64,000 nt of DNA from an uncultured virus (IMG/VR IMGVR_UViG_3300037524_001600) (Duplodnaviria; Heunggongvirae; Uroviricota; Caudoviricetes). Positions 4,014-46,145 of this stretch are shown in pieces. The translations under genes and the position numbers were made by a program. Below the pieces are notes generated by a model that worked only from the letters and a program-made list of their open reading frames with translations, had not been told where the DNA came from and searched no databases. The stretch lies in the IMG/VR virus record IMGVR_UViG_3300037524_001600; one strand, written 5' to 3'. The stretch's first letter is position 1. The number at the start of each line of letters is the position of its first letter.

Positions 4014-4555
4014 GCTTTCCTCGCTGCGTCGATTGCATCATCAAGCGATGACGCTTTGCTAGATGCGTTTATGGCAATTTGCATTCGCCTCACGAATGAG
4101 TTTGCATACATAGGCGAGTCGAAGCAAAGACGCACGTCGCCAGCGGTCTGTAGCGCTGCTGCGCCTATCAATCCTTCGGGCCAAAGTTTCTTTGTCAGCG
4201 CTCGCAGTGCATCCCGCTCGGCACGCAACCGCATCTGCTCATCAACGGCTCTGGCAACAGCGTTGCAGGACGCACTCCGGTAGTCATCGTGCATCTTCCG
4301 CGCTTTCTCCGCGGAGTCTGGAGTATTCGCCAGCGCAACAACTCCGCAGGCGACAACGCGCATTTTCTCCCGCTCAAGCTCCGCGCGCAGCCGCTCGATC
4401 TCGTCGAGCATATGCGCCATTTCGAGCAAGTTCGCGTTGTGTGCTTTCGCGGTCTCTGCGTCCAAGGCGCGCAGCCGCTCGATCTCGTACCACAGCTCTC
4501 CCGCCTCGTCCTCCGTCAGGGCGCCTCTTAGGCGCAAGCGCTGTACGTCGCTCAT
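4010..4555 (-). CDS. Coiled-coil hypothetical protein
   Basis: EIERLRA repeats; ATGA-coupled. Confidence 0.6.
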   Translation of the reverse strand: MSDVQRLRLRGALTEDEAGELWYEIERLRALDAETAKAHNANLLEMAHMLDEIERLRAELEREKMRVVACGVVALANTPDSAEKARKMHDDYRSASCNAVARAVDEQMRLRAERDALRALTKKLWPEGLIGAAALQTAGDVRLCFDSPMYANSFVRRMQIAINASSKASSLDDAIDAARKA

Positions 4556-8676: not shown

Positions 8677-9033
8677 TCATGTTCTGGCCTTCGACGCGTA
8701 GCACTCGGCCGGGTTGCTTTCCCGCAGCCACCTGGAGTGGAAGCAGTGCGCACACCGGTCCAGTCTCCAGGTGCCGTTGCGGCCCAGCTCCTCCGCGACG
8801 CGCGCCTCATTGCCCGGGTTGAACAGGTCGCAGAGGTCCTTGGCCGCCTCCGGGCAGAGCCCGGTCATTTTGCGCACCACCTTAACGCGCTCCACCCTGT
8901 CGGCCGGCAGCAGCGCGACTAGGTCCCGCGCCAGCTCGATCCACCGCGGCTCGATCGAGAATTCGTCGAAGTACAGCGCGGATATCCTGCCGTCCGCCAT
9001 GCTGATGCCCACTATGCTGCTGCCGATGTGCAT
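8677..9033 (-). CDS. Hypothetical protein with a C-terminal CxxC..C motif
   Basis: AGGAG SD; central segment resembles L7/L12 CTD-like 'VKVVRKMTGLCPEAAKDL'. Confidence 0.55.
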   Translation of the reverse strand: MHIGSSIVGISMADGRISALYFDEFSIEPRWIELARDLVALLPADRVERVKVVRKMTGLCPEAAKDLCDLFNPGNEARVAEELGRNGTWRLDRCAHCFHSRWLRESNPAECYASKART

Positions 9034-9113
9034 TTCTATTCTCCTATCTCAGATGTGGTCTCGGCGCGCAGGGCGCGCGTCTACTCCAGGTATCTCCTCA
9101 GCTCTCCGTCCAG

Positions 9114-9419
9114 CTAGTCCTCCTGCTCTTCGTCCTGCTCTTCTTCTTCGATGTAGCCGTCTTCCTGGTAGTCATCCCGGGTCTCCCTGTTGCGCTGGCA
9201 GAATAGCTTTGAGTAAGGGTCGCAGGTGTAGCGCCTGCAGTCCACGCGCTCGTGGTACGGCTCGTCGGGGAACGCCCTCCGCGCCGCCATGTTCGCCGAC
9301 TGCCTGGTGGGGTACAGGGTGCCCTCTATCCCATCCACCCACCACAGCTCGACTGAGAAATCGTCCTCCGGTATCTCGATCTCTCGTAGCAGGAACTGCG
9401 TCTTGGACTTGGCGGTCAC
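9114..9419 (-). CDS. Hypothetical protein with an acidic tail
   Basis: GTGA-coupled start; EEEEQDEEQED C-terminus. Confidence 0.55.
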   Translation of the reverse strand: MTAKSKTQFLLREIEIPEDDFSVELWWVDGIEGTLYPTRQSANMAARRAFPDEPYHERVDCRRYTCDPYSKLFCQRNRETRDDYQEDGYIEEEEQDEEQED

Positions 9420-9637
9420 TTGATCACCCTTATATTGAACTGTTTTGCCTTGAAGTGCCGCTCGGTGTACGCCTCCAGTCGCGCGTTCAGCGCCGTGTAC
9501 TCTTCCATCAGCGCGTCCAGCTCTGGCCCCGAGTCTATGGATGTCAGAATATCCGCTATCAGACATTTCGAGCGGAAGACCTCTACGATGATTCTGTCCT
9601 GCGTGTTCATGATACCCTTCAAACGTTCCGCGGACAT
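9416..9637 (-). CDS. Hypothetical protein
   Basis: AGGAG SD within a repeated leader. Confidence 0.55.
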   Translation of the reverse strand: MSAERLKGIMNTQDRIIVEVFRSKCLIADILTSIDSGPELDALMEEYTALNARLEAYTERHFKAKQFNIRVIK

Positions 9638-9675
9638 GGCCGCTCCTTCGTGTTGAGATGTCGTCTGAGGTATTA

Positions 9676-9972
9676 TCAGATGAAAATACCGGAAGCGGCC
9701 TCGGCGCTGGCTTTGATGCGGCTTTCCCTTGTCTGCCCGCTGACTAGTTGTCTGGCGCATTGCCTGCACGCGTACAGCGAGCGGTGGGCGTCATACGTCT
9801 CCTCGCAGCACTCGGCGTAGCACTCCAACGTGCACACCGCCTTACCCCAGCCGCAGAATTCGCATTTCTCGCCGGTTGCAGCGATCTTTCTTTTTTCGTA
9901 GAACATGCTGGACCCCTCGTCGAGCCTGGCGGACAGCCCATGGATCGCCTCGAGTATTTTCTTCGCCTTCAT
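9676..9972 (-). CDS. Cys-rich (Zn-binding) hypothetical protein
   Basis: Several CxxC pairs; AGGAG SD within a repeated leader. Confidence 0.6.
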   Translation of the reverse strand: MKAKKILEAIHGLSARLDEGSSMFYEKRKIAATGEKCEFCGWGKAVCTLECYAECCEETYDAHRSLYACRQCARQLVSGQTRESRIKASAEAASGIFI

Positions 9973-10019
9973 GCTGTCGCTCCTCGCGTTGAGATGTCGG
10001 TCGAGACGTCGTAAATCAG

Positions 10020-10325
10020 CTTATCCGAAGGACCCTCCTGGGAGGACGCTTCGGATAGCCCGTATGGCCTTCGTGCCTGAGGGTTGCCCGGGCTATGGTT
10101 TACACACCCAGCGCGGAGGCTGGCTCACTAAGACTATGACGAAGTGGCTAATGCTCTACCGGACTGAGCTACCCGCCCGTGATTTTGTGGGGGGCGGGGA
10201 GGGATTCGAACCCCCGACACTTAGCCGCATAGGTAATACCTTCCGCGCTGCCTTATTATGAGGATTTGTGGCGAGACGATGCTGCGTGACTCACAGTTCG
10301 ACGCTTACGAAGACGATTGCCACAT
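10020..10325 (-). ncRNA. Structured ncRNA containing a circularly permuted tRNA-like module (core 10146-10226; YrlA/Y-RNA-like topology)
   Basis: Minus strand order: GGCTAA-GTGTC-GGGGG TTCGAAT CCCTC-CCCGCCC-C-CCA-CAAAATCAC-GGGCGGG-TA-GCTC AGTCCGGTA GAGC-A-TTAGCC; further flanking helices; RNA ends are approximate. Confidence 0.75.
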
Positions 10326-10330
10326 TTCGC

Positions 10331-11095
10331 TCATTCGAACGGTCCCATCAGGATGTCCCTGATGGCCTTTCCTATCCTGACCTGCGTGACCTCCACGCTG
10401 TTCGCGCGCTGCCTGGCCCGCTTGATCTCGACGATCAGCTCGTCGAGAGCGGTCAGCACGTCGGCCTTCTGCAGAGTGGTGGCAGCCCCGCTTCGATGCG
10501 TGGTCTCGAACGTGCCGACCACCTCGTCGCGTGACGCCTCCTTGACCTGCGCCGGGTGCTTGTCGGTGGCCGGGGCGAGCACCACGGGGAACAGAACCTT
10601 CTGCGTCTTCGCCGTGCGGTCGGGCCCCGACACCCACACGCCCTTCGGGTCGGTCTCGTCGTGCGCCCAGCGCCGGGTGGCGTCCAGGGTGGGCATGTGG
10701 CTGAACACGTCGGCCTTCATCCGCTCCAGCCGCGCCTCCAGTCCCATCAGCTCGTCGACCGGGACGCCGGAGGCCACCACGCGCCCGCGGAACTCGATGT
10801 CCGCGAGGGCCTTCGTGTTCGTCACGTTCTTGGAGGCCAGCAGATCCTCCGCGTCGGCCCACATTCCGAGAGCGTACTCCAGCGTGGCCCCCACCGTGGA
10901 GGGCAGCGCGCGGTGCTCGGCGGCCGCCGCCTCCATCGCCGCGTTCTCGGGGCTCTCGACGATCATCCTGAGTGACTTGTCCTGGCCCCGGAAGAAATTC
11001 TCGTTCCTGAACTTGTCCCCCGTCTCCTTCATGACGGCGTTGGCGGACCCGACCACGGTCTTCTCCGCGGCGAGCAGTTCGTGCAGTTTACCCAC
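10331..11095 (-). CDS. Conserved uncharacterised protein (KLHELLA...PTLD...APATDKHPAQV...ARQRAN family; I recall it as DUF7873, unverified)
   Basis: GGAG SD before GTG at 11095; motif pattern recognised from phage/actinobacterial proteins. Confidence 0.75.
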   Translation of the reverse strand: MGKLHELLAAEKTVVGSANAVMKETGDKFRNENFFRGQDKSLRMIVESPENAAMEAAAAEHRALPSTVGATLEYALGMWADAEDLLASKNVTNTKALADIEFRGRVVASGVPVDELMGLEARLERMKADVFSHMPTLDATRRWAHDETDPKGVWVSGPDRTAKTQKVLFPVVLAPATDKHPAQVKEASRDEVVGTFETTHRSGAATTLQKADVLTALDELIVEIKRARQRANSVEVTQVRIGKAIRDILMGPFE

Positions 11096-11236
11096 GGCTA
11101 TTCTCCGATGTGTGAATGATAACATTACCGGTTACGATGCTCCGGCGCCGATAGTCTTTGCGCCCGCACCTCTCGAAAGACTGCGGGTGACCTCGGCCGG
11201 TTTCACGGGAAGGGCCAGCGCCCTTCCCGCTTGATT

Positions 11237-11413
11237 CTACAGCCAGATCCGGCGGTTGTACACGCTGCCTGCGTAGCGCGACAGGCCGCGCAGCAGCTTG
11301 TCGCCCCTCCGGCACTCGAAGTTCGACCTGGAGTCCGCGCGGCGCTCCATGCGATTGCCCCCGAGATTCTTCCTTTTCGGTACGAACTGATATTGCTTTC
11401 TTCCCTTGTACAT
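11237..11413 (-). CDS. Small basic protein (58 aa, absent from ORF track)
   Basis: GGAGGAG SD; MYKGRKQYQFVPKRKNLGGNRMERRADSR...RIWL*. Confidence 0.6.
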   Translation of the reverse strand: MYKGRKQYQFVPKRKNLGGNRMERRADSRSNFECRRGDKLLRGLSRYAGSVYNRRIWL

Positions 11414-11428
11414 GTCAGCTCCTCCGGG

Positions 11429-11662
11429 TCAGGCGCACTGCGACTGCGGGACCAGCTCGCGGCATTCGGTGTGCGAGATGACCAGCTTGGAGCCGTCGTC
11501 GAACGCCCAGGTGTCTGTGGGCGACGGCGACGGGCAGGGGTCGATCCAGTTCGTCGACCACACCAGCGTGCCGTCCAGTTCCCCCGCCATCCTCTCGGCG
11601 AGGGCCCGGCTGAACTGGCCGTGCGGAAAGGCGCGGATCTCGATCTGTTTCGCGATACTCAT
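11429..11662 (-). CDS. Hypothetical protein
   Basis: AGGAG SD (leader CACAGGAGACGCAA). Confidence 0.6.
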   Translation of the reverse strand: MSIAKQIEIRAFPHGQFSRALAERMAGELDGTLVWSTNWIDPCPSPSPTDTWAFDDGSKLVISHTECRELVPQSQCA

Positions 11663-11686
11663 TTGCGTCTCCTGTGGAGTGGGTCG

Positions 11687-11736
11687 AAAAAATTCGGGAA
11701 CCCGAGAGACTCTTTACTGGAATCTCTCGGGTTCCC
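11687..11736 (-). terminator. Intrinsic terminator-like 14-bp hairpin plus T6
   Basis: GGGAACCCGAGAGA/TCTCTCGGGTTCCC perfect stem followed by GAATTTTTT on the minus strand. Confidence 0.6.
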
Positions 11737-12066
11737 CTCTGTCGCCAGAGGGTGCCTACGCGGCACGGGGAGGCTCCCCCGATCTGGATTACGCGCGGGC
11801 CGCGCTCTCGTCGCTATCTCTGTAACTGCGGGTACCGAACACCGGTGCCAGATCCACCGGATATCAGAGCCCGCGGCTGCCGCGCCTTTGAATGGCGCGC
11901 GGCGTCTCGCCTCCTGCAGACCCGACTATCAAGACAATCGACCGGGTCTGCTGCGTTATAGCGGGCCTTTTAAAGACGTGCCCAGGTCTTCACAGGAGTC
12001 ACCGCGGGAGGACCCCCTTTGCGAGAGGCCCTCCCGGCAGCCCCCTCTCGTGGAGGGGAGCTCCCG
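11737..12066 (-). ncRNA. Candidate structured intergenic RNA (serial hairpins, two pseudoknots)
   Basis: No credible ORF; many adjacent inverted repeats; loop-complementary 7-mer; one copy of the repeated pseudoknot. Confidence 0.5.
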
Positions 12067-12068
12067 CC

Positions 12069-12191
12069 TTACGACAGCCGACCGAGTGCCTGTAGGCACT
12101 CTCTCAGCGTGTAGAACTCGCCGGCGATGACGCCCGCGTCAGATACAGCTATCCACCTTGTGCCGTGCTCCGTGACCTTCCTGCATGCCAT
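12069..12191 (-). CDS. Small protein (40 aa, absent from ORF track)
   Basis: AGGAG SD directly behind the hairpin promoter; MACRKVTEHGTRWIAVSDAG...RLS*. Confidence 0.55.
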   Translation of the reverse strand: MACRKVTEHGTRWIAVSDAGVIAGEFYTLRECLQALGRLS

Positions 12192-12208
12192 CTTGCGTCT
12201 CCTGTGAC

Positions 12209-12251
12209 GATAGGCATCTGCCTATCATATAAGATGGCGCGATCAGCGCGG
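12209..12251 (-). promoter_or_regulatory. Class I (hairpin) putative phage promoter
   Basis: GCGCCATCTTATAT-GATAGGC AGAT GCCTATC; near-identical to the copy at 36041. Confidence 0.7.
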
Positions 12252-12479
12252 GCGAACGCCGCCCTCCGGCCACAGATCGTTGAGCACGATGGCCTCTCCC
12301 CGCCTTATCCAGGAGCTGTGTAGCACGCACTCCTCTCCCCCGGCCCGGTTCCTCACCACCAGGTGTATCAGAGCGCCGCTCCTGGTGGCGGCTCCGAGCT
12401 CTACCTCCAGGCTGAATGGTCCCGCGATCAGGGCCTCCTTCTGGGCGCGCGTGAGCCTGACGAACGTCTTCATCCCCAT
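12243..12479 (-). CDS. Hypothetical protein
   Basis: ORF track; GGAG upstream. Confidence 0.5.
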   Translation of the reverse strand: MGMKTFVRLTRAQKEALIAGPFSLEVELGAATRSGALIHLVVRNRAGGEECVLHSSWIRRGEAIVLNDLWPEGGVRPR

Positions 12480-12721
12480 ACAACATCCGCTCCCCTGTCG
12501 TGTGCGACCTTGACCACCTCCAGGATCTCTGCCGCCTCCTCCCTGCACCGCCCCCCGGCGTTGGCCAGTATTATCAGCCTTCTGCGCACCGCCGGCAGAG
12601 TCTCATTGGGCCACATGCCGGGAGACTCCGGCGCCGCCCCCATGGTCTCCAGCAGGCCATACGCCTGCAAGTCCGTCAGGGAGCGGCACTCGCCGGCGCC
12701 GTACGCGAAGAACGTAACCAC
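12470..12721 (-). CDS. Hypothetical protein
   Basis: ORF track; adjacent to upstream stop. Confidence 0.5.
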   Translation of the reverse strand: MVTFFAYGAGECRSLTDLQAYGLLETMGAAPESPGMWPNETLPAVRRRLIILANAGGRCREEAAEILEVVKVAHDRGADVVWG

Positions 12722-12724
12722 GAT

Positions 12725-13288
12725 TTACGCTGCGACCTCCGGGGGCGCCGCCTTGGCGGTATTCTCCAGCCGCCACGAGCGCAGCCTCCGCAGCATCGGC
12801 GCGGCGGCCAGCGCCTGCCTCTCGGCGTCGTCCCTGGCGTTGTGCCTGGTGTGGACGGATCTCTCCGGCCACTTGTCGTCGGGGAACAGGGCCGCCAGCG
12901 TCCTGAAGCATCTGTCGTCCCGGAAGTGCCACGGGCATTTCAGCTCGGTTCTGCTGTACGCGTTCCGTATGATTATGTTGTCGAACGTCGCCCCGAAGCC
13001 CCAGACGCCCTTGCAGCCGTGCAAGCAGTAGAAGTTGGTCAGCTTGGTGAGGGCCTCGTGCAGGGTGTCCGTCCCCGCGGTGAGGATGGTCCGGGCCTCC
13101 TCCGACTGGCCCATCCACCACCTGATCGTCACGGCGTCCATCTTGCCGTGCCGCGCCGCGCTCTCGAAGGATACCTGCGACAGGAACGAGTCGAACATGC
13201 CGTCCTCGTTGAACGAGGCGGCCCCTATCTGCACGACGGCGGCGAACGGTCCGTTGCCCAGCGTCTCCAGATCCAGCATCATCTCCAT
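12725..13288 (-). CDS. DEDD-family 3'-5' exonuclease/exoribonuclease (RNase AS/exonuclease VIII-like)
   Basis: MLDLETLG (ExoI), WGFGATFD (ExoII), RCFRTL, HNARDDA (ExoIII). Confidence 0.85.
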   Translation of the reverse strand: MEMMLDLETLGNGPFAAVVQIGAASFNEDGMFDSFLSQVSFESAARHGKMDAVTIRWWMGQSEEARTILTAGTDTLHEALTKLTNFYCLHGCKGVWGFGATFDNIIIRNAYSRTELKCPWHFRDDRCFRTLAALFPDDKWPERSVHTRHNARDDAERQALAAAPMLRRLRSWRLENTAKAAPPEVAA

Positions 13289-16180: not shown

Positions 16181-16257
16181 TGGTGGGCCGGGCGGGGCTC
16201 GAACCCGCGACCCGCGGATTATGAGTCCGCCGCTCTGACCGACTGAGCTACCGGCCC
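16181..16257 (-). tRNA. tRNA with anticodon CAT, probably tRNA-Ile2 (lysidine) rather than Met
   Basis: GGGCCGG TA GCTC AGTCGGTCA GAGC G GCGGA CTCATAA TCCGC GGGTC GCGGG TTCGAGC CCCGC CCGGCCC A CCA; paired 1:72 excludes initiator; C4:G69 and C5:G68 are TilS determinants. Confidence 0.92.
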
Positions 16258-26111: not shown

Positions 26112-26304
26112 CTTTAAAACCCTCGAAGGCGCTCCCGACCCCCTTTGCGAACACGGATCCCACAACCATGGCGACCAGTAGGAACGTCCATTCCTGCAGC
26201 TCCATACGCCTGTCGGACAGCAACAGATACAGAGATCCCACGACCGATATGGCGGAGGCCACCAGCGCCTGTATTATGCTGAGCACGTCCATCAGCTTAC
26301 TCAT
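26071..26304 (-). CDS. Small two-TM membrane protein
   Basis: Two hydrophobic stretches; overlaps the primase start. Confidence 0.45.
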   Translation of the reverse strand: MSKLMDVLSIIQALVASAISVVGSLYLLLSDRRMELQEWTFLLVAMVVGSVFAKGVGSAFEGFKDGKDSKEKSGVSR

Positions 26305-26785
26305 CGAAGTTCTCCCACTTGGTGACTCTCATAAGCCTCTGCTTGTGTCTGTCGGTTATCCGCTCTCTAACGCTCCACGAGACCTTCTCTATCAGGCTGT
26401 TATACCAGCAATTGCTCGTGGGCGCCTCTACGAAGCACAGCGACCAGGTCTCCGAGTAAGATAGAGTGCCTTTAGTACGGTACTGCTCCAGACAGATGAA
26501 ATCGAACTCATCTTTGGGGCGAACCTTCAGCAGCTCGTTCAACACCTTGCTGGAGGAGGTGTATTTTCGCCAGTTGGATTCCTGCCCCCTGTTTATGCGG
26601 CCCATCCCCTTGAACAGCTTTTTACCCAGGTAGAACCGCTCGAGGACTCTGTCTCTTATCACGTAAATGAAGCCCACCAGGTGCGCGTCCGATCCCATCT
26701 GCTCGGGGAACTTCCAGTGCCCGTTGTCGAAGCGCACGGAAGGGGGCGGCATTCCAGAGCCCGGTATAGGACCCCTGTAGCTCAT
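26297..26785 (-). CDS. GIY-YIG-family endonuclease
   Basis: GFIYVI...FYLGKK...ESNWRKYTSSS...E...WYN. Confidence 0.75.
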   Translation of the reverse strand: MSYRGPIPGSGMPPPSVRFDNGHWKFPEQMGSDAHLVGFIYVIRDRVLERFYLGKKLFKGMGRINRGQESNWRKYTSSSKVLNELLKVRPKDEFDFICLEQYRTKGTLSYSETWSLCFVEAPTSNCWYNSLIEKVSWSVRERITDRHKQRLMRVTKWENFDE

Positions 26786-27630
26786 GCCGCGCCCCCATCC
26801 GGCCACCCGTCCAGACTGAAGTAATCCCCCGGATGACGCTGCAGGTACAGCATCTTCCCGTTACTGAGCAGATAGCCGCGCCAGTCGTCCCCGTACACGT
26901 GTCTGTACATGAATAGCACGGTTTCCCTCAGCTCCTCCTCTGATGCGCACCCTTCTAGCAGCTTGTCGGCCGTTTTGGGGCCCACTCCCGGTATCCCGGG
27001 GACGTGATCCACTCCGTCCCCCGTCAGCAGCTGCCTGTAGAAGTACCTGAGGGCCTCCCACTCCGATATCTCGTACAGATTCACATCCGGTATGGCGGAG
27101 TACCGCTCCATCAGATTGAGCTTCTTCATCCGAAAGTGCTTTCCCGGTATGCACCTGAGATCCTTGTCTATCGTGCACACGATGTAGGGATCCCCGGCGG
27201 CGGCCGCCTCCACCGCCCAGGTCCGCATCAGATCGTCGGCCTCCCCGCCGTCGGCCTGCACCGCCATGTCCTCCGCCACCGCCAGACTGCGCAGCGTGGG
27301 GACGAATAGATTCTGCCTGTGCAGATCGGGGTGTCTGTTAATCTTGTATTCCGGGTACATGGCGTTCCGGAAGTTGTTCTCGCCCTTCACGGCCATCAGA
27401 AACTCCGTGCAGAACAGCGTGTCCAGTAGCGAGTCCAGATCCCTCTTGAAGTTGTCCCAGGATTCCTCGAGATATTGCCGATCCTCCTCCGGAGTGAATT
27501 CCAGCGGCAGCTGCTTCCCGGAGGCATCCAATCTGACGAAATTCACGCCGCCCGTCTGCTGCGCTTTTTTAACGTGCCTGGGACGGCAGGCTTGATAGGC
27601 CAGCACGTCGCCGTCGATTATGGCCAGCAT
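26782..27630 (-). CDS. 5'-3' exonuclease (T7 gp6/RNase H-like FEN family)
   Basis: IIDGDVLAY, NFR..YK.NR, EADD, DKDL, GDGVDHVPGIPGVGPKTA (H3TH). Confidence 0.9.
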   Translation of the reverse strand: MLAIIDGDVLAYQACRPRHVKKAQQTGGVNFVRLDASGKQLPLEFTPEEDRQYLEESWDNFKRDLDSLLDTLFCTEFLMAVKGENNFRNAMYPEYKINRHPDLHRQNLFVPTLRSLAVAEDMAVQADGGEADDLMRTWAVEAAAAGDPYIVCTIDKDLRCIPGKHFRMKKLNLMERYSAIPDVNLYEISEWEALRYFYRQLLTGDGVDHVPGIPGVGPKTADKLLEGCASEEELRETVLFMYRHVYGDDWRGYLLSNGKMLYLQRHPGDYFSLDGWPDGGAA

Positions 27631-32694: not shown

Positions 32695-34959
32695 TCAGCA
32701 GAAGCAGTACTCGGACTGCCGTATCAGCCCCACGTCCAGCGAGCCCACGTCGAGGCCGGAGGCGTCCGTCCGCATGTCACTGAGGAGCGCCCCGAGCGGG
32801 TCCATCTGGTATAGCTGGACGAACGTGTCTCTTATCAGCGGATACAGGGCCTGCATGTCGGCCAGCAGGCACCCGTACGAGTCGTGCACGGTGGTCACCG
32901 GGAAGTCCGCCTGGCACACGGTGAGCATCAGGTGCGCCGCGTCGAGGCTGTGTATCGCGTTGGGGCTGGCTCCTTGCGACTGTTTCCCCTTGGACGGCTT
33001 GAGTTCCTCCACGAAGCAGACCGCCAGCTGCAGCGTGTTGGAATAGTAGCCGGTGCTCAGCCTGGGGCCGGCGGGCGGCCCGTACTGCACGTACAGCTTC
33101 TTCGTGATCCCCTCTGTGTAGTGCTGCACGACCGGGAAGTGCGTCAGCGGGACCACCCAGGAGAGGAATCTGCCCTCACGCTCTGCCTCTCGGCCCGCCC
33201 GCTCCAGCTTGGCCAGCAGCTGCATCGGCCTCCTAAGGGCCTCCCGGCACGTGGTGTACACCTCCCGGCCCAGGAACGCACCCCACCTGTGCTCCATGTG
33301 GTACAGCAGCTCGATCCCGTGCTTCCTGGAGTCGTCGATGATCTGCTGCCCCAGGCCGTACGCCGTGCCCCCGTAGGGGATCGTCATGGTGTTCCTCTTG
33401 ACGATCTTCCTACGGTGGGCGGCGTCTTTTATTCGGCACCAGAACACGGGTGCGGCCATGGCCATCAGCTCCGCGTTCTCGTGCTTCAGCCGGTGGATGT
33501 CACCGGCGAGCCTGCTGCGCCTGTCGGATTTGGGCTCGCATTCGTTGATCTCCTTTTTGAGTTCCACGATATTGTCTATGAGCCGCTCGCAGGCGGCCTT
33601 CTCCTCCTCGGTCATGCCGGACACGTCCTTCTCCAACTTGGCCCAGACGTGGTCGGCGATGTACTTGTACAGATCCCCCGGAAGATCCAGCGGGACCAGG
33701 TTGACGTGCGGTGCCGTGACCTCATCCCTCGTCAGGGCCGCCAGGTGCTGGCTGCCGTTGTTCGACCCATCGATGAACACCTCGAGCCCGCTCTCGTACA
33801 TGTACTCGGCGCCTTCCGCCCAGTGCGAGGGCAGGTAGTGGCCCCTGTGCGAGGCCTGCCAGTCCCGGAATGACTTCAGCTCGAAGCACGTGGCGAGGAA
33901 CTGCCAGGGGTGGTCCGCGCGCATCCACCCCTGATTAACCTTGGGATTCTCAGCGTAGGACAGCAAGATCTCCTCGTTGTCGGCGGCCCACTCCGCCCTG
34001 TCCTTCAGCGGCAGTTTGTCAGTCTTGAGCCTGTCGATGCGGCCCGAGTCTCCCGCCCAGGAGGATGCCAGAGACACCATTAGCCAGAAGAAGCCGGACC
34101 TCCCTATCGGCTTCCTGTCGGCCCTCAGCAGCAGGCCCCTGGCCACGTCGTTGCCCTGCTCGTGCAGATAGGCGGTCGCCGGGTATTTCCTACCGCGGAA
34201 GTCGTAGTAGTACAGGTGGTAGAACACCTTGTCCACGAACCGCGAGGCTATGTCGATCACCGCCCTGGCCTCCCTCAGCTTGGTGTTCCTGGCCTCCGGA
34301 TTGGTCTGCTCCCAGATGTCGGAGAATGCCTCGACCTTATTCCTCAGGGCCCACATTTGGATATTCAGGACGTGCTCGTTTACCGTCCACCCGATGCGCT
34401 GGGCCCTGTTCAGGCACTCGAAGACCATCGGGTGGCTCTGCGGCGACAGGGCATCCAGTACGTCCTTGCTGCCCGTCTTCACCATGTTCCACCCGGTCTC
34501 GTGCCTGGAGCCGCGCCACTGCCCGTACGGCCTGATGTTCGGGAGCTTCTCGATCGAGCCGGGCTCCACGCTGTTCCAGAGCTGGCATATCCCGTCGTCA
34601 TCTAGCACCTGCACCAGGTAGGCATTGTGTCCCTTCTGGCCGTGGCCCATCACGACCTGCAGAAAGCCCAGCTCCTCAAAGGAGTACAGCAGGAAGGCGC
34701 CGGTCTTGGCCGCCAGCGACGAGTCCTTCTTCAGTCTGAACTTCCCCCTTATGGTGTGACCGATGGCACAGATCAGTTCCGTCAGGTAGATCGTGTGCCC
34801 GCCGAAGCCCTTCTTCTGGCGCGTGTAGAGGTACACCACGGATATCAGGTGGTCCGTGTACTCCCTGACGTCATGTCGGAGGAGGTACTTTAGAGGATTC
34901 TGCGGAGATATCTCCGTCCTCAGCCTTGCTCGGATGCTTTCCACCAGAATTTCTCTCAT
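32695..34959 (-). CDS. T7/T3-like single-subunit DNA-directed RNA polymerase (RNAP-2, 754 aa)
   Basis: DFRGRKY, PWQFLA, motif A DGSNNGSQH, DLY, motif B RKIVKRNTMTIPYG, PNAIHSLDA, motif C VHDS. Confidence 0.95.
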   Translation of the reverse strand: MREILVESIRARLRTEISPQNPLKYLLRHDVREYTDHLISVVYLYTRQKKGFGGHTIYLTELICAIGHTIRGKFRLKKDSSLAAKTGAFLLYSFEELGFLQVVMGHGQKGHNAYLVQVLDDDGICQLWNSVEPGSIEKLPNIRPYGQWRGSRHETGWNMVKTGSKDVLDALSPQSHPMVFECLNRAQRIGWTVNEHVLNIQMWALRNKVEAFSDIWEQTNPEARNTKLREARAVIDIASRFVDKVFYHLYYYDFRGRKYPATAYLHEQGNDVARGLLLRADRKPIGRSGFFWLMVSLASSWAGDSGRIDRLKTDKLPLKDRAEWAADNEEILLSYAENPKVNQGWMRADHPWQFLATCFELKSFRDWQASHRGHYLPSHWAEGAEYMYESGLEVFIDGSNNGSQHLAALTRDEVTAPHVNLVPLDLPGDLYKYIADHVWAKLEKDVSGMTEEEKAACERLIDNIVELKKEINECEPKSDRRSRLAGDIHRLKHENAELMAMAAPVFWCRIKDAAHRRKIVKRNTMTIPYGGTAYGLGQQIIDDSRKHGIELLYHMEHRWGAFLGREVYTTCREALRRPMQLLAKLERAGREAEREGRFLSWVVPLTHFPVVQHYTEGITKKLYVQYGPPAGPRLSTGYYSNTLQLAVCFVEELKPSKGKQSQGASPNAIHSLDAAHLMLTVCQADFPVTTVHDSYGCLLADMQALYPLIRDTFVQLYQMDPLGALLSDMRTDASGLDVGSLDVGLIRQSEYCFC

Positions 34960-45156: not shown

Positions 45157-46145
45157 GGGTATCTCCCCCAGGAGACCCGTCTAGTCAGCTTCAGAGTCTT
45201 CGTATTGTCTTTAGGTATTCCCGGCGTCCAGACACACTGGTACACACCACCCATGCCTTCCCAAAGTTTATATCCACCGACACCGCCGGCAAAATTGGCA
45301 TTCCCAGTGGCCCAGTTGTGCTCCACTGTCTGCGTATAGCTGCCATTGACGTACGCCGGCAACGTGGACGGAGCGCCTACCCCGGAGAAAACATTCATGA
45401 ACTCCATACCACTATTATTCGCGTGATCGGCGGTAACCGCCGCCAGAGAGGCCCCGGCCGGGTATAGGTAGCCATAGCCACCGACACCAGTCCACGCCGC
45501 TGCTCCTCCCACATACGTGGCCCCTGTATTGCTGAATTGCCAGTAACTTGAGCCCGCATTCAGTATCCGTCCTTGATAGCTGTAGTCGACACCGGAGATG
45601 TTCACAGTACCGGAGGTGTCCTCGAGTGGTGGGTACATGGTGATCTTGTACCTCACATCCAACTGGTCCAGTGAGGTGATGGAGAGGGTCGTCGGATTCC
45701 CCCCGGCGTCCTTTATCAGGGACCTAGCGAACAGCGAGTTATTAGCCCAACCCACCCCCACCTCTGACATGTTACCGACCACAGCCCCCTGCGGAAATGC
45801 ATATCCGAACTGCCGTGTCACGTAGTAGGTTGGAGACGGCCCGTACACGAGACCGGTAACGGTGGCCGAAGTAGTGGTCCAGGCGGACAGGGCCTGCAAC
45901 TGCGTGTCTGTGAATGCCGGAGTCGAATTACCGGTGCCAATGGCTACCCCGGCTATCATCGGTTGATTCATCGGGGCTACTTGTCCGATTCTATCAAGTC
46001 CTATATTAGTTATCACATTCGGAAACCAGCCCGTATCGACGCGGACAATGCCGCCTCTCTTTAGCGTCAGGTTGAATTCTCCTCGGAGACGCTGGGCTGG
46101 GAACTCCGTCACCAGGTCAATATAGCGTCTGCGTAAAAGAATCAT
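45153..46145 (-). CDS. Tail-associated structural protein, paralog C
   Basis: GWFPNVITNIGL, IGTGNSTP, GNMSEVG, LFARSL, DQLDVRY, SWGRYP. Confidence 0.7.
   Translation of the reverse strand: MILLRRRYIDLVTEFPAQRLRGEFNLTLKRGGIVRVDTGWFPNVITNIGLDRIGQVAPMNQPMIAGVAIGTGNSTPAFTDTQLQALSAWTTTSATVTGLVYGPSPTYYVTRQFGYAFPQGAVVGNMSEVGVGWANNSLFARSLIKDAGGNPTTLSITSLDQLDVRYKITMYPPLEDTSGTVNISGVDYSYQGRILNAGSSYWQFSNTGATYVGGAAAWTGVGGYGYLYPAGASLAAVTADHANNSGMEFMNVFSGVGAPSTLPAYVNGSYTQTVEHNWATGNANFAGGVGGYKLWEGMGGVYQCVWTPGIPKDNTKTLKLTRRVSWGRYP

Follow-up and report, generated by a model that had tools for sequence, protein, structure and literature searches.

A circularly permuted tRNA mimic without an anticodon loop is encoded beside phage DUF7873 genes and may form a ribonucleoprotein with their product

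Analysis of a 64,000-nucleotide (nt) stretch of DNA from an uncultured virus of the Caudoviricetes (IMG/VR record IMGVR_UViG_3300037524_001600), here called the window, revealed an unusual locus at positions 10,020 to 11,095. A gene encoding a 254-amino-acid (aa) protein of the DUF7873 family is followed by a noncoding region of about 310 nt in which the parts of a transfer RNA (tRNA) stand in permuted order. The locus raises the question of what an RNA with a tRNA body but no anticodon loop does behind a phage gene, and whether the RNA and the protein belong together. We favor, with a probability of roughly 55%, the reading that the DUF7873 protein and the RNA constitute one ribonucleoprotein, in which DUF7873 would take over the role of Ro60 for an RNA shaped like a tRNA head on a rod. 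All coordinates are positions in the whole window, and both the RNA and the DUF7873 gene are read on the minus strand. They are compiled in Table 1.

Reading of the minus-strand sequence revealed a tRNA body in circularly permuted order at 10226-10146. The variable loop and the T arm come first, and a perfect 7-base-pair (bp) acceptor stem with C-CCA and a 9-nt spacer leads on to the D arm and a closing helix of 6 bp. A loop of 13 nt with C-CCA at its start caps the acceptor end. The anticodon loop is absent; at that end, the helix simply runs on. The original prediction, a note made from the letters of this DNA, had described this permuted body, and every one of its core coordinates was correct. 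ARAGORN and the Rfam tRNA model (RF00005) identified the one ordinary tRNA of the window, a tRNA-Met at 16181-16257, and did not call the permuted element. Assignment as a standard tRNA was rejected, as the element lacks the cloverleaf order and the anticodon loop and was not called by either program. Assignment as a permuted tRNA gene was rejected as well. In the window, joining of the ends would not bring a 7-nt anticodon loop together from the flanks: the 5-bp stem is lengthened by a sixth pair (G-C), beyond which the flanks engage each other once more in an outer stem. A short reading frame ending in TAA TAA upstream of the head, noticed by eye as a possible tag, is not kept in the related loci L039 and L052 and was dismissed.

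The element was compared with chance expectation by means of a strict scanner that required the T loop, at least four of five T-stem pairs, seven of seven acceptor pairs, a D stem without mismatches, and a closing helix of 3 bp or more. Across the two strands of the window, the element at 10226-10146 was the sole site; shuffled loci totaling 4.26 Mb yielded six. In 117 loci, the scanner detected 93 unique modules with 86 distinct acceptor stems. U8 and the GG of the D loop are nearly invariant in these modules (Table 1), and each of the 93 has a closing helix (3 to 8 bp), as the scanner requires. A covariance model (R1), generated from 15 seed modules from other loci with the window excluded, scored the window element at 56.5 bits (E ~1e-13). 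Because R1 also gives 20 to 42 bits to junctions of adjacent ordinary tRNA genes, only matches of at least 45 bits or with verified acceptor pairing were counted.

RNAalifold analysis of an unguided MAFFT alignment of 30 modules recovered both the T arm and the acceptor stem of 7 bp, and 11 of the 12 pairs showed compensatory changes. Covariation was then determined in an independent set of 50 sequences, none of which had been used for R1. It consisted of the window and 49 matches from 47 of the 81 replication loci described below, near-duplicate loci and loci without a strong match having been left out. In this set, 99.3% of 800 cells pair, compared to at most 51.5% in slid controls; this percentage leans towards the model because the alignment was fitted to it, which does not apply to the number of pair types. 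All 16 pairs were changed on both sides, and 236 cells carried changes on both sides, compared to 64.5 +/- 5.8 in shuffles. Alignment of homologs followed by a covariation test was the check that the original prediction had proposed for the permuted module, and the module passed it with compensatory changes at 16 of 16 pairs.

Comparison of the modules revealed two head types, type B (74 unique modules), to which the window element belongs, and type A (19 unique modules, one of which looks spurious). Type B heads have a canonical D arm with a 4-bp stem. Type A heads have a 3-bp D stem and a 10- to 12-nt loop, as found in the phages' own tRNA-Leu genes, and look as if they were derived from tRNA-Leu. 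The discriminator in type B is G in 31, T in 27, C in 11, and A in 5 modules, and in type A it is A in 17 of 19. In loci with both types, the order is A then B in 23 cases and never B then A; the window and its closest relatives carry type B only. A type A head with a short variable loop is the first module after the gene in L005, L007, L020, L021, L030, L036, and other loci.

Several features of the modules bear on processing. N-CCA follows the acceptor strand in type B far more often than the roughly one module expected by chance (Table 1) and in type A in 2 of 19 modules. G at position +1, the first nucleotide of the 5' acceptor strand, is present in 51/74 type B and 14/19 type A modules, and U at position -1 is present in 32/74 and 13/19, respectively. 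The spacer varies widely in length across the family (Table 1) without any sequence conservation, and of the 50 long spacers of type B, 43 fold by themselves. A hypervariable spacer together with N-CCA, G+1, and U-1 is what would be expected of a discarded segment between a ribonuclease P (RNase P) site and a CCA 3' end. The combination of N-CCA and a variable spacer suggests RNase P cleavage and 3' trimming to a two-piece mimic. A gene at 12725-13288 on the minus strand, 1.6 kb upstream of the cassette, encodes a protein with an Rv2179c-like 3'-5' exoribonuclease domain (PF16473, E 2.7e-39; phrog_255, "exonuclease"). It is not a conserved neighbor. This 3' exonuclease could trim the spacer back to the CCA. 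A shared exonuclease partner was considered and rejected: the exonuclease near DUF7873 in Gordonia phage Ronaldo has no Pfam family and is not Rv2179c-like.

The head is attached to a rod in which the 6-bp closing helix leads via an internal loop to a 9-bp outer stem. Superposition of the equivalent columns in the three closest relatives, L003, L039, and L052, revealed GTGTGTGC with GCACAC in L003 and GAGTTGGC or GAGTTGAC with GTCAGCTT in L039 and L052. These compensatory differences indicate that the outer stem, CAGCGCGGA/TCCGCGCTG in the window, has been preserved while its sequence changed, in line with the original prediction of this helix. The flanks were also examined in the whole family by comparing each module's own 5' and 3' flanks with flanks swapped between modules. 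Own flanks of type B pair at -22.9 kcal/mol, compared to -15.6 kcal/mol for swapped flanks (p 1e-19), and those of type A pair at -20.6 compared to -16.4 kcal/mol (p 3e-4).

Two hairpins had been proposed for the 3' end of the RNA. The first is substantiated by compensatory changes in the same three relatives and is followed in L039 by a T run and the ribosome-binding site of the next gene, whereas the second is kept in L003 only. Neither a proposed crossing pairing of CTCA..TAAGG with TCTTAGTGAG nor a CTATG/CATAG extension of the helix has a counterpart in L003, L039, or L052. The idea of a pseudoknot or switch, which depends on that crossing helix, is not supported. The folding z-score of the region 10021-10330 is -2.28. 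Two blocks around AATCGTCTTCGT and CATCGTCTCGCCAC are located at 10261-10330 (minus strand), between the stop codon and the outer stem; L003 shares them, and L039 and L052 do so in part. These blocks might be a 5' domain of the RNA, a promoter, or a processing site. They were considered as a phage promoter motif, which was rejected as no repeats occur elsewhere in the window.

Table 1. Positions of the RNA, the DUF7873 gene, and further features of the window and of related loci (positions preceded by a locus or genome name refer to that record)
Feature	Position	Strand	Basis or remark
Whole conserved noncoding region, putative RNA of ~310 nt after the gene	10330-10021	-	Blocks and helices common to L003, L039, and L052
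Outer stem, 5' strand CAGCGCGGA	10250-10242	-	Pairs with 10117-10109; pairing kept, sequences differ in L003, L039, L052
Closing ("anticodon-stem") helix, 5' strand GGCTAA	10226-10221	-	6 bp with 10151-10146
Variable loop GTGTC, 5 nt	10220-10216	-	Sequence reading
T arm GGGGG-TTCGAAT-CCCTC	10215-10199	-	T-stem covariation at 5/5 pairs in the independent set
Acceptor stem, 3' strand CCCGCCC	10198-10192	-	7/7 pairs with 10178-10172; all 7 pairs covary
Discriminator C and encoded CCA	10191 and 10190-10188	-	N-CCA here in 42/74 type B modules
Spacer CAAAATCAC, 9 nt, closes the acceptor stem	10187-10179	-	Length 3 to ~160 nt in relatives
Proposed RNase P cut	between 10179 and 10178	-	Putative
Acceptor stem, 5' strand GGGCGGG	10178-10172	-	Sequence reading
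U8-A9 (TA)	10171-10170	-	U8 in 91/93 modules
D arm GCTC-AGTCCGGTA-GAGC	10169-10153	-	All 4 D-stem pairs covary; D-loop GG in 92/93 modules
A26 (A)	10152	-	Sequence reading
Closing helix, 3' strand TTAGCC	10151-10146	-	Sequence reading
Outer stem, 3' strand TCCGCGCTG	10117-10109	-	9-bp stem with 10250-10242
3' hairpin 1 (ATAGCCCG...CGGGCTAT)	10096-10055	-	Compensatory changes in L003, L039, L052
3' hairpin 2 (CCGAAG...CTTCGG)	~10054-10023	-	Minimum-free-energy fold; counterpart in L003 only
DUF7873 gene, 254 aa	11095-10331	-	GTG start at 11095; stop codon 10333-10331; GC content at third codon positions 0.90
Sigma-70-like promoter consensus match TGTACA-17-TAGAAT	11262-11234	-	9/12 matches, weak
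Contig of run X1	10072-10344		Perfect match over the RNA
Contig of run X2	10058-10314		Perfect match over the RNA
Contig of run X3	10164-10314		Perfect match over the RNA
Contig of run X4	10077-10362		Perfect match; bridges the reading frame end into the RNA
Long-spacer modules	L011 4003-4200; L015 3910-4125		Extra sequence between G-CCA and acceptor 5' strand
Third head of jumbo phage G008	L120 1006-1082 = G008:C1:159405-159481		209-kb phage; among small open reading frames
Tape measure protein, 2,999 aa	47173-56172	-	Pfam
T7-like single-subunit RNA polymerase	32695-34959	-	Pfam
Second reading frame, 888 aa	61293-63959	-	Pfam; weak RNA_pol match, E 2e-11
SegE-type GIY-YIG homing endonuclease between replication genes	26297-26806	-	Pfam
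Family A DNA polymerase, primase-helicase, class II ribonucleotide reductase, ligase, 5'-3' exonuclease, M15 peptidase			Pfam

The position of the module relative to DUF7873 genes was first determined in 33 viral DUF7873 loci. The strict scanner detected 40 sites, distributed over 30 of the 33 loci, within the 25,080 nt that directly follow the genes, and the other 401,380 nt (both strands counted) contained three, an enrichment of about 200-fold beside DUF7873. The three loci missed by the scanner carry the module as well, so that all 33 are positive. In L013 it lies 1.3 kb downstream of the gene (76.4 bits with R1), and in L011 and L015 the acceptor strands are perfectly paired and each followed by G-CCA, with spacers of ~145 to 155 nt that exceed the scanner limit. 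Homologs of the gene without the permuted module, which the original prediction had named as a danger to its claim, did not turn up among these viral loci.

The linkage was examined again in a replication set of 81 loci (80 metagenome loci and one genome locus). A match of at least 45 bits was found downstream of the gene in 58 loci, at a median distance of 229 nt. Seven loci (L053-L055, L098, L101, L104, L116) have a module only upstream, at ~150 nt on the same strand; 13 offered too little flank, and three (L047, L048, L119) gave no match. Thus, 65 of 68 assessable loci are positive. L047 and L048 may hide a long-spacer module, their protein identity being like that of L011, and L119, from Calothrix, contains a 40-bit match and a strict type A module. 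Among cultured phages, all seven lineages examined (Ralstonia phage phiRSL1, Klebsiella phage vB_KpM_FBKp24, Gordonia phage Ronaldo, Vibrio phage D505, Rhizobium phage RHph_TM30, Arthrobacter phage Talia1610, and Pseudanabaena phage Pam2) carry the element in an unannotated gap after the DUF7873 gene. A search of 10 complete or nearly complete carrier genomes, which was not exhaustive as it failed to detect a 50-bit module known otherwise, assigned 9 of the 10 matches with 45 bits or more to the DUF7873 locus. The adjacency in the viral, replication, and cultured sets strongly supports the original proposal that the RNA and the 254-aa protein belong together.

All-against-all comparison of the open reading frames (ORFs) in the 33 viral loci revealed no conserved neighbor other than the module. 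No other gene family is common to more than six loci, and the only large clusters are shadow ORFs of DUF7873. Since no other gene is shared, protein and RNA appear to be a cassette that moves as a unit among unrelated phages. The carrier phages infect Proteobacteria, Actinobacteria, and Cyanobacteria, and the cassette is often found inside tRNA gene arrays.

Some individual loci deserve mention. L119 corresponds to positions 7241624-7250130 of the Calothrix brevissima NIES-22 chromosome and was the sole cellular genome match of the pattern scan. It has a partial DUF7873 match (residues 81-252), followed by the strict type A head and the B-like match of 40 bits, and is possibly a prophage remnant. 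Because of this relative, found in a scan with one peptide pattern, and of one mostly actinobacterial ESM Atlas cluster, a restriction of the family to viruses is not established. In Klebsiella phage vB_KpM_FBKp24 (L036), a "tRNA-OTHER, tRNA-Sup-TTA" is annotated at L036 4018-4097 (record positions 46041-46120) and overlaps the start of the type B head at 4060-4154; the permuted element was probably misread in this published call. A promoter directly after the DUF7873 gene was predicted by the authors of that genome. In some jumbo phages, phage transfer-messenger RNA (tmRNA) genes lie within 3 kb of the cassette (L014 5505-5895, L034 6184-6510, L027 6521-6741). One of the three is standard (114 bits), one is called as permuted by ARAGORN, and one is sub-threshold; the last matches cyanobacterial and permuted tmRNA models and is cut by the locus end.

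The 254-aa protein was classified as a member of Pfam family PF25283 (DUF7873) with an E-value of 5.5e-64 and 216.6 bits (cut-off 27). The match covers residues 1 to 250 and profile positions 1 to 242 of 244. Homologs share an MGKLHELL N-terminus at the same start, and an invariant TDKHPAQVKE block is common to 31 relatives; in the predicted structure, this block lies at the tip of a long beta-hairpin. The family comprises 2,599 representatives at 50% identity with an E-value of at most 0.001, and the best 150 of these are 243 to 280 aa long. The AlphaFold model reached a predicted local distance difference test (pLDDT) score of 92.7 and a predicted template modeling (pTM) score of 0.65. Searching with the full model by Foldseek revealed no match with an E-value of 0.001 or lower in the PDB or BFVD, and neither solved structures nor viral predicted ones included a convincing relative of the central domain folded alone. 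Profile searching of PDB sequences gave nothing meaningful (best E-value 2), PHROG, PADLOC, and NCBIfam contained no match, and the ESM Atlas yielded DUF7873 clusters only. Longer fused forms were not found, which is weak evidence, and no paper naming the family was found in the literature. The median isoelectric point (pI) of the family is 5.98; the window protein has a pI of 5.94 and a net charge of -4. DUF7873 keeps eight conserved basic positions.

Part of the region 10000-11100 is present in 20 metatranscriptome runs. The four best of these runs, each from a different study, were analyzed, and contigs from the RNA region were obtained from all four libraries, covering 10058-10362 in part (Table 1). 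No contig cover was found over 9600-10047 in the four runs, which is no evidence of an RNA end. The sigma-70-like site upstream of the gene was found once, compared to 0.2 expected in shuffles, and no terminator was found between the DUF7873 gene and the RNA. The contig of run X4, which bridges the ORF and the RNA, fits cotranscription from this site. The RNA is probably transcribed with the DUF7873 gene.

From these observations we infer the following mechanism. DUF7873 would bind the RNA and hold for it the place that Ro60 holds for YrlA. The head, with U8, G18-G19, the T loop, the 7-bp acceptor stem, and CCA, would be presented to the universal tRNA-handling machinery. RNase P may cut 5' of G+1 in many members and possibly in this one, and exonucleases may trim the spacer to the encoded CCA. 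The product would be a nicked, two-piece, CCA-ended mimic, by analogy with the YrlA RNA of Mycobacterium smegmatis. In the infected cell, it would likely serve to keep a tRNA-binding factor of the host occupied or to redirect it, and a mimic without an anticodon loop would offer no target to an anticodon nuclease. Because the hosts span three bacterial phyla, the head presumably engages something universal. This argues for RNase P, the CCA-adding enzyme, a synthetase, elongation factor Tu (EF-Tu), or the ribosome as candidate targets rather than for a lineage-specific defense. Going by the sequence, the mimic might serve as a decoy, as an adaptor, or as a charged carrier.

Several points weigh against a processed RNA held by DUF7873. 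The window has C, not U, at position -1, and the CCA is paired with the leader in 7 of 28 long CCA-bearing spacers. Contigs from three RNA libraries span the proposed RNase P site unbroken, so an uncut form exists. The contigs give no strand, ends, or level, and DNA carry-over into RNA libraries is possible. No hexamer or other sequence motif common to the type B rod flanks was found as a docking site. The mild acidity of the protein is unusual for an RNA-binding protein. Finally, the tenth match of the genome search is a genuine third module located ~30 kb from the gene in jumbo phage G008. It has a T arm GTTGG/CCAAC, an acceptor ACCCTGC/GCAGGGT, G-CCA, a canonical D arm, and a weak closing helix. 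Its distance from the gene indicates that this kind of RNA can exist apart from DUF7873.

The last two points would also fit an RNA that acts alone, either as a free tRNA decoy or as an element that processes or stabilizes the transcript, with DUF7873 being merely cotranscribed or a transient maturation factor. In that case, the head might recruit RNase P and thereby define or protect the 3' end of the DUF7873 mRNA, a situation resembling that of the mammalian MALAT1 transcript, which has a tRNA-like element at its end. The 3' untranslated position of the module in 58 of 65 positive replication loci is consistent with such a role, as are the lack of a terminator between gene and RNA and the one RNA-library contig that bridges both. 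We nevertheless consider it unlikely. The module lies upstream of the gene in seven loci, where it is unfit for a 3'-end element, and in 23 loci two different heads occur, type A always preceding type B. Furthermore, the protein was never observed without the RNA in assessable loci, though the cassette has moved between unrelated phages. Because protein and RNA occur together despite this movement and share no other gene, they look mutually dependent rather than cotranscribed by chance.

The encoded CCA, the 7-bp acceptor stem, and the enriched G+1 and U-1 could also belong to an RNA that is aminoacylated after processing. Such a two-piece RNA might act on the ribosome or with EF-Tu in a tmRNA-like manner, with DUF7873 as an SmpB-like helper, or it might be the donor for a transferase. 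Type A heads share the D arm and A73 (17/19) with the phages' own tRNA-Leu, and leucyl-tRNA synthetase (LeuRS) is known not to read the anticodon. A phage device of charged tRNA look-alikes is therefore conceivable as a long shot, with the two-piece head being loaded by an anticodon-blind synthetase, for which LeuRS would be the candidate in the case of type A. DUF7873 might then use or deliver the aminoacylated mimic for a nonribosomal transfer, or the mimic might enter or jam EF-Tu or the ribosome; the protein-RNA pair would be analogous to SmpB-tmRNA but built from a full tRNA body. Models of two-piece tmRNA do match across the T arm/acceptor junction (RF04321, RF01850, and related), but only there, and with 14.2 bits for tmRNA_permuted and 8.8 bits for tmRNA, compared to a cut-off of 47. 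ARAGORN called no tmRNA in the window, and no tag reading frame is present; the original prediction had rejected a tmRNA, rightly by these results. The type B discriminator is not fixed, with all four nucleotides represented, which argues against a single synthetase identity. Among type A heads, which are absent from the window, CCA is encoded in just 2 of 19, and DUF7873 resembles neither SmpB nor any transferase. An aminoacylated, functional RNA is improbable on this evidence.

That the element is simply a YrlA Y RNA served by Ro60 (Rsr) of the host is very improbable, although YrlA has the same permuted topology and a rod beneath the head. Of the Rfam families, which the original prediction had suggested searching, YrlA (RF02553) was the best match at a permissive threshold, with 42.8 bits and an E-value of 3e-8, compared to a gathering score of 69. 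The alignment runs end to end (positions 1-114), with the middle stem of the model deleted. Together with the confirmed outer stem, it supports the YrlA-like topology proposed before. In related loci, no match at the gathering score was found in 20 loci, and the permissive threshold gave five matches of 32 to 39 bits in 4 of 10 loci. According to PMC4201824, YrlA RNAs are marked by the head, by a 5' GNCGAAN0-1G motif as the proposed Ro60 contact, and by a same-strand Ro60 gene within ~4 kb. The motif is absent from the 5' flank in the window and occurs in 2 of 93 modules (background, 5.4%). As the original prediction had stated, the window has no Ro60 or SmpB gene: Pfam scans of 73 ORFs (72 on the minus strand and one on the plus strand) detected no TROVE and no SmpB domain. 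TROVE was also absent from the related record G001 and from 10 of 10 near-complete carrier genomes, in a search whose controls were positive in Deinococcus and Bacteroides. Moreover, Ro60 occurs in only ~5% of bacteria according to PMC4201824, yet the carriers infect three phyla.

Finally, the ideas that the element is a pair of degenerate tRNAs, a tRNA fragment of the attP type, or an arrangement by chance, encouraged by the score of R1 at adjacent-tRNA junctions and by half-tRNA signals that alone can mislead, are refuted by the covariation of all helices and by acceptor halves that are perfectly complementary over 7 bp here and over 86 acceptor sequences in relatives, and fit neither the enrichment beside DUF7873 nor the fact that Pfam scans of the window ORFs named no integrase.

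The remaining genes of the window, almost all of which are on the minus strand, include structural, replication, and transcription genes of a phage (Table 1). Megablast of 9000-12500 against named phages returned nothing.

In the literature, as far as its text was accessible, no description of the DUF7873-mimic pairing or of this phage mimic family was found. To our knowledge, Y RNAs with tRNA-like heads have so far been defined via their partnership with Ro60. If DUF7873 is indeed the partner here, the tRNA-like head would be a portable module coupled in evolution to at least two unrelated proteins. The large DUF7873 family of unknown function would gain a testable candidate RNA partner, and hundreds of unannotated 300- to 500-nt gaps after phage DUF7873 genes would become annotatable. 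Phages of Gordonia, Arthrobacter, and Rhizobium provide harmless, culturable systems for asking what an anticodon-less tRNA mimic does in infection.

Comparison with known permuted RNAs places the phage RNA as follows. The permuted tRNA genes of Cyanidioschyzon merolae have the 3' half before the 5' half and a spacer at the acceptor end, and they regenerate a complete anticodon loop after circularization. The flanks in the window, in contrast, assemble no anticodon loop, and the helix continues into a longer stem. Two-piece tmRNA corresponds to the phage RNA in the T arm, the acceptor 3' strand with CCA, the discarded spacer, and the acceptor 5' strand, and the Rfam permuted and beta tmRNA models align across this junction. 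The D arm of tmRNA is reduced, whereas the phage RNA has a full D arm, and it has neither a tag reading frame nor an SmpB domain protein among the window ORFs.

The closest parallel is YrlA with Ro60/Rsr. Both RNAs have a permuted head with a T arm, a loop-closed acceptor stem, a D arm, and the tRNA elbow nucleotides, and in both the head sits on a long imperfect stem made by the two flanks. Both are encoded on the same strand beside one particular protein gene and occur in phages as well as bacteria, as described for YrlA in PMC4201824 and 10.1101/312249. The partner differs: Ro60 is a ring-shaped protein with a TROVE domain, whereas the neighbor of the phage RNA is DUF7873, of ~250 aa and without a recognizable fold. 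The head of Salmonella Typhimurium YrlA has no free CCA end, according to 10.1101/312249; the phage family mostly has N-CCA and a full 7-bp acceptor stem. M. smegmatis YrlA, as described in PMC4201824, is the one studied YrlA with a loop-closed 7-bp acceptor stem. RNase P cuts it in vitro at the position of a tRNA 5' end, and in vivo it consists of two pieces, one of which ends in CCA. It is bound by Rsr, encoded beside rsr, and receives part of its CCA after cleavage, whereas the CCA of the phage RNA is encoded and Rsr is lacking; its cleavage has been demonstrated, whereas that of the phage RNA is proposed. Judged by its sequence, the phage RNA has the YrlA design but is not a member of the curated YrlA family, and DUF7873 would be to this RNA what Ro60 is to YrlA.

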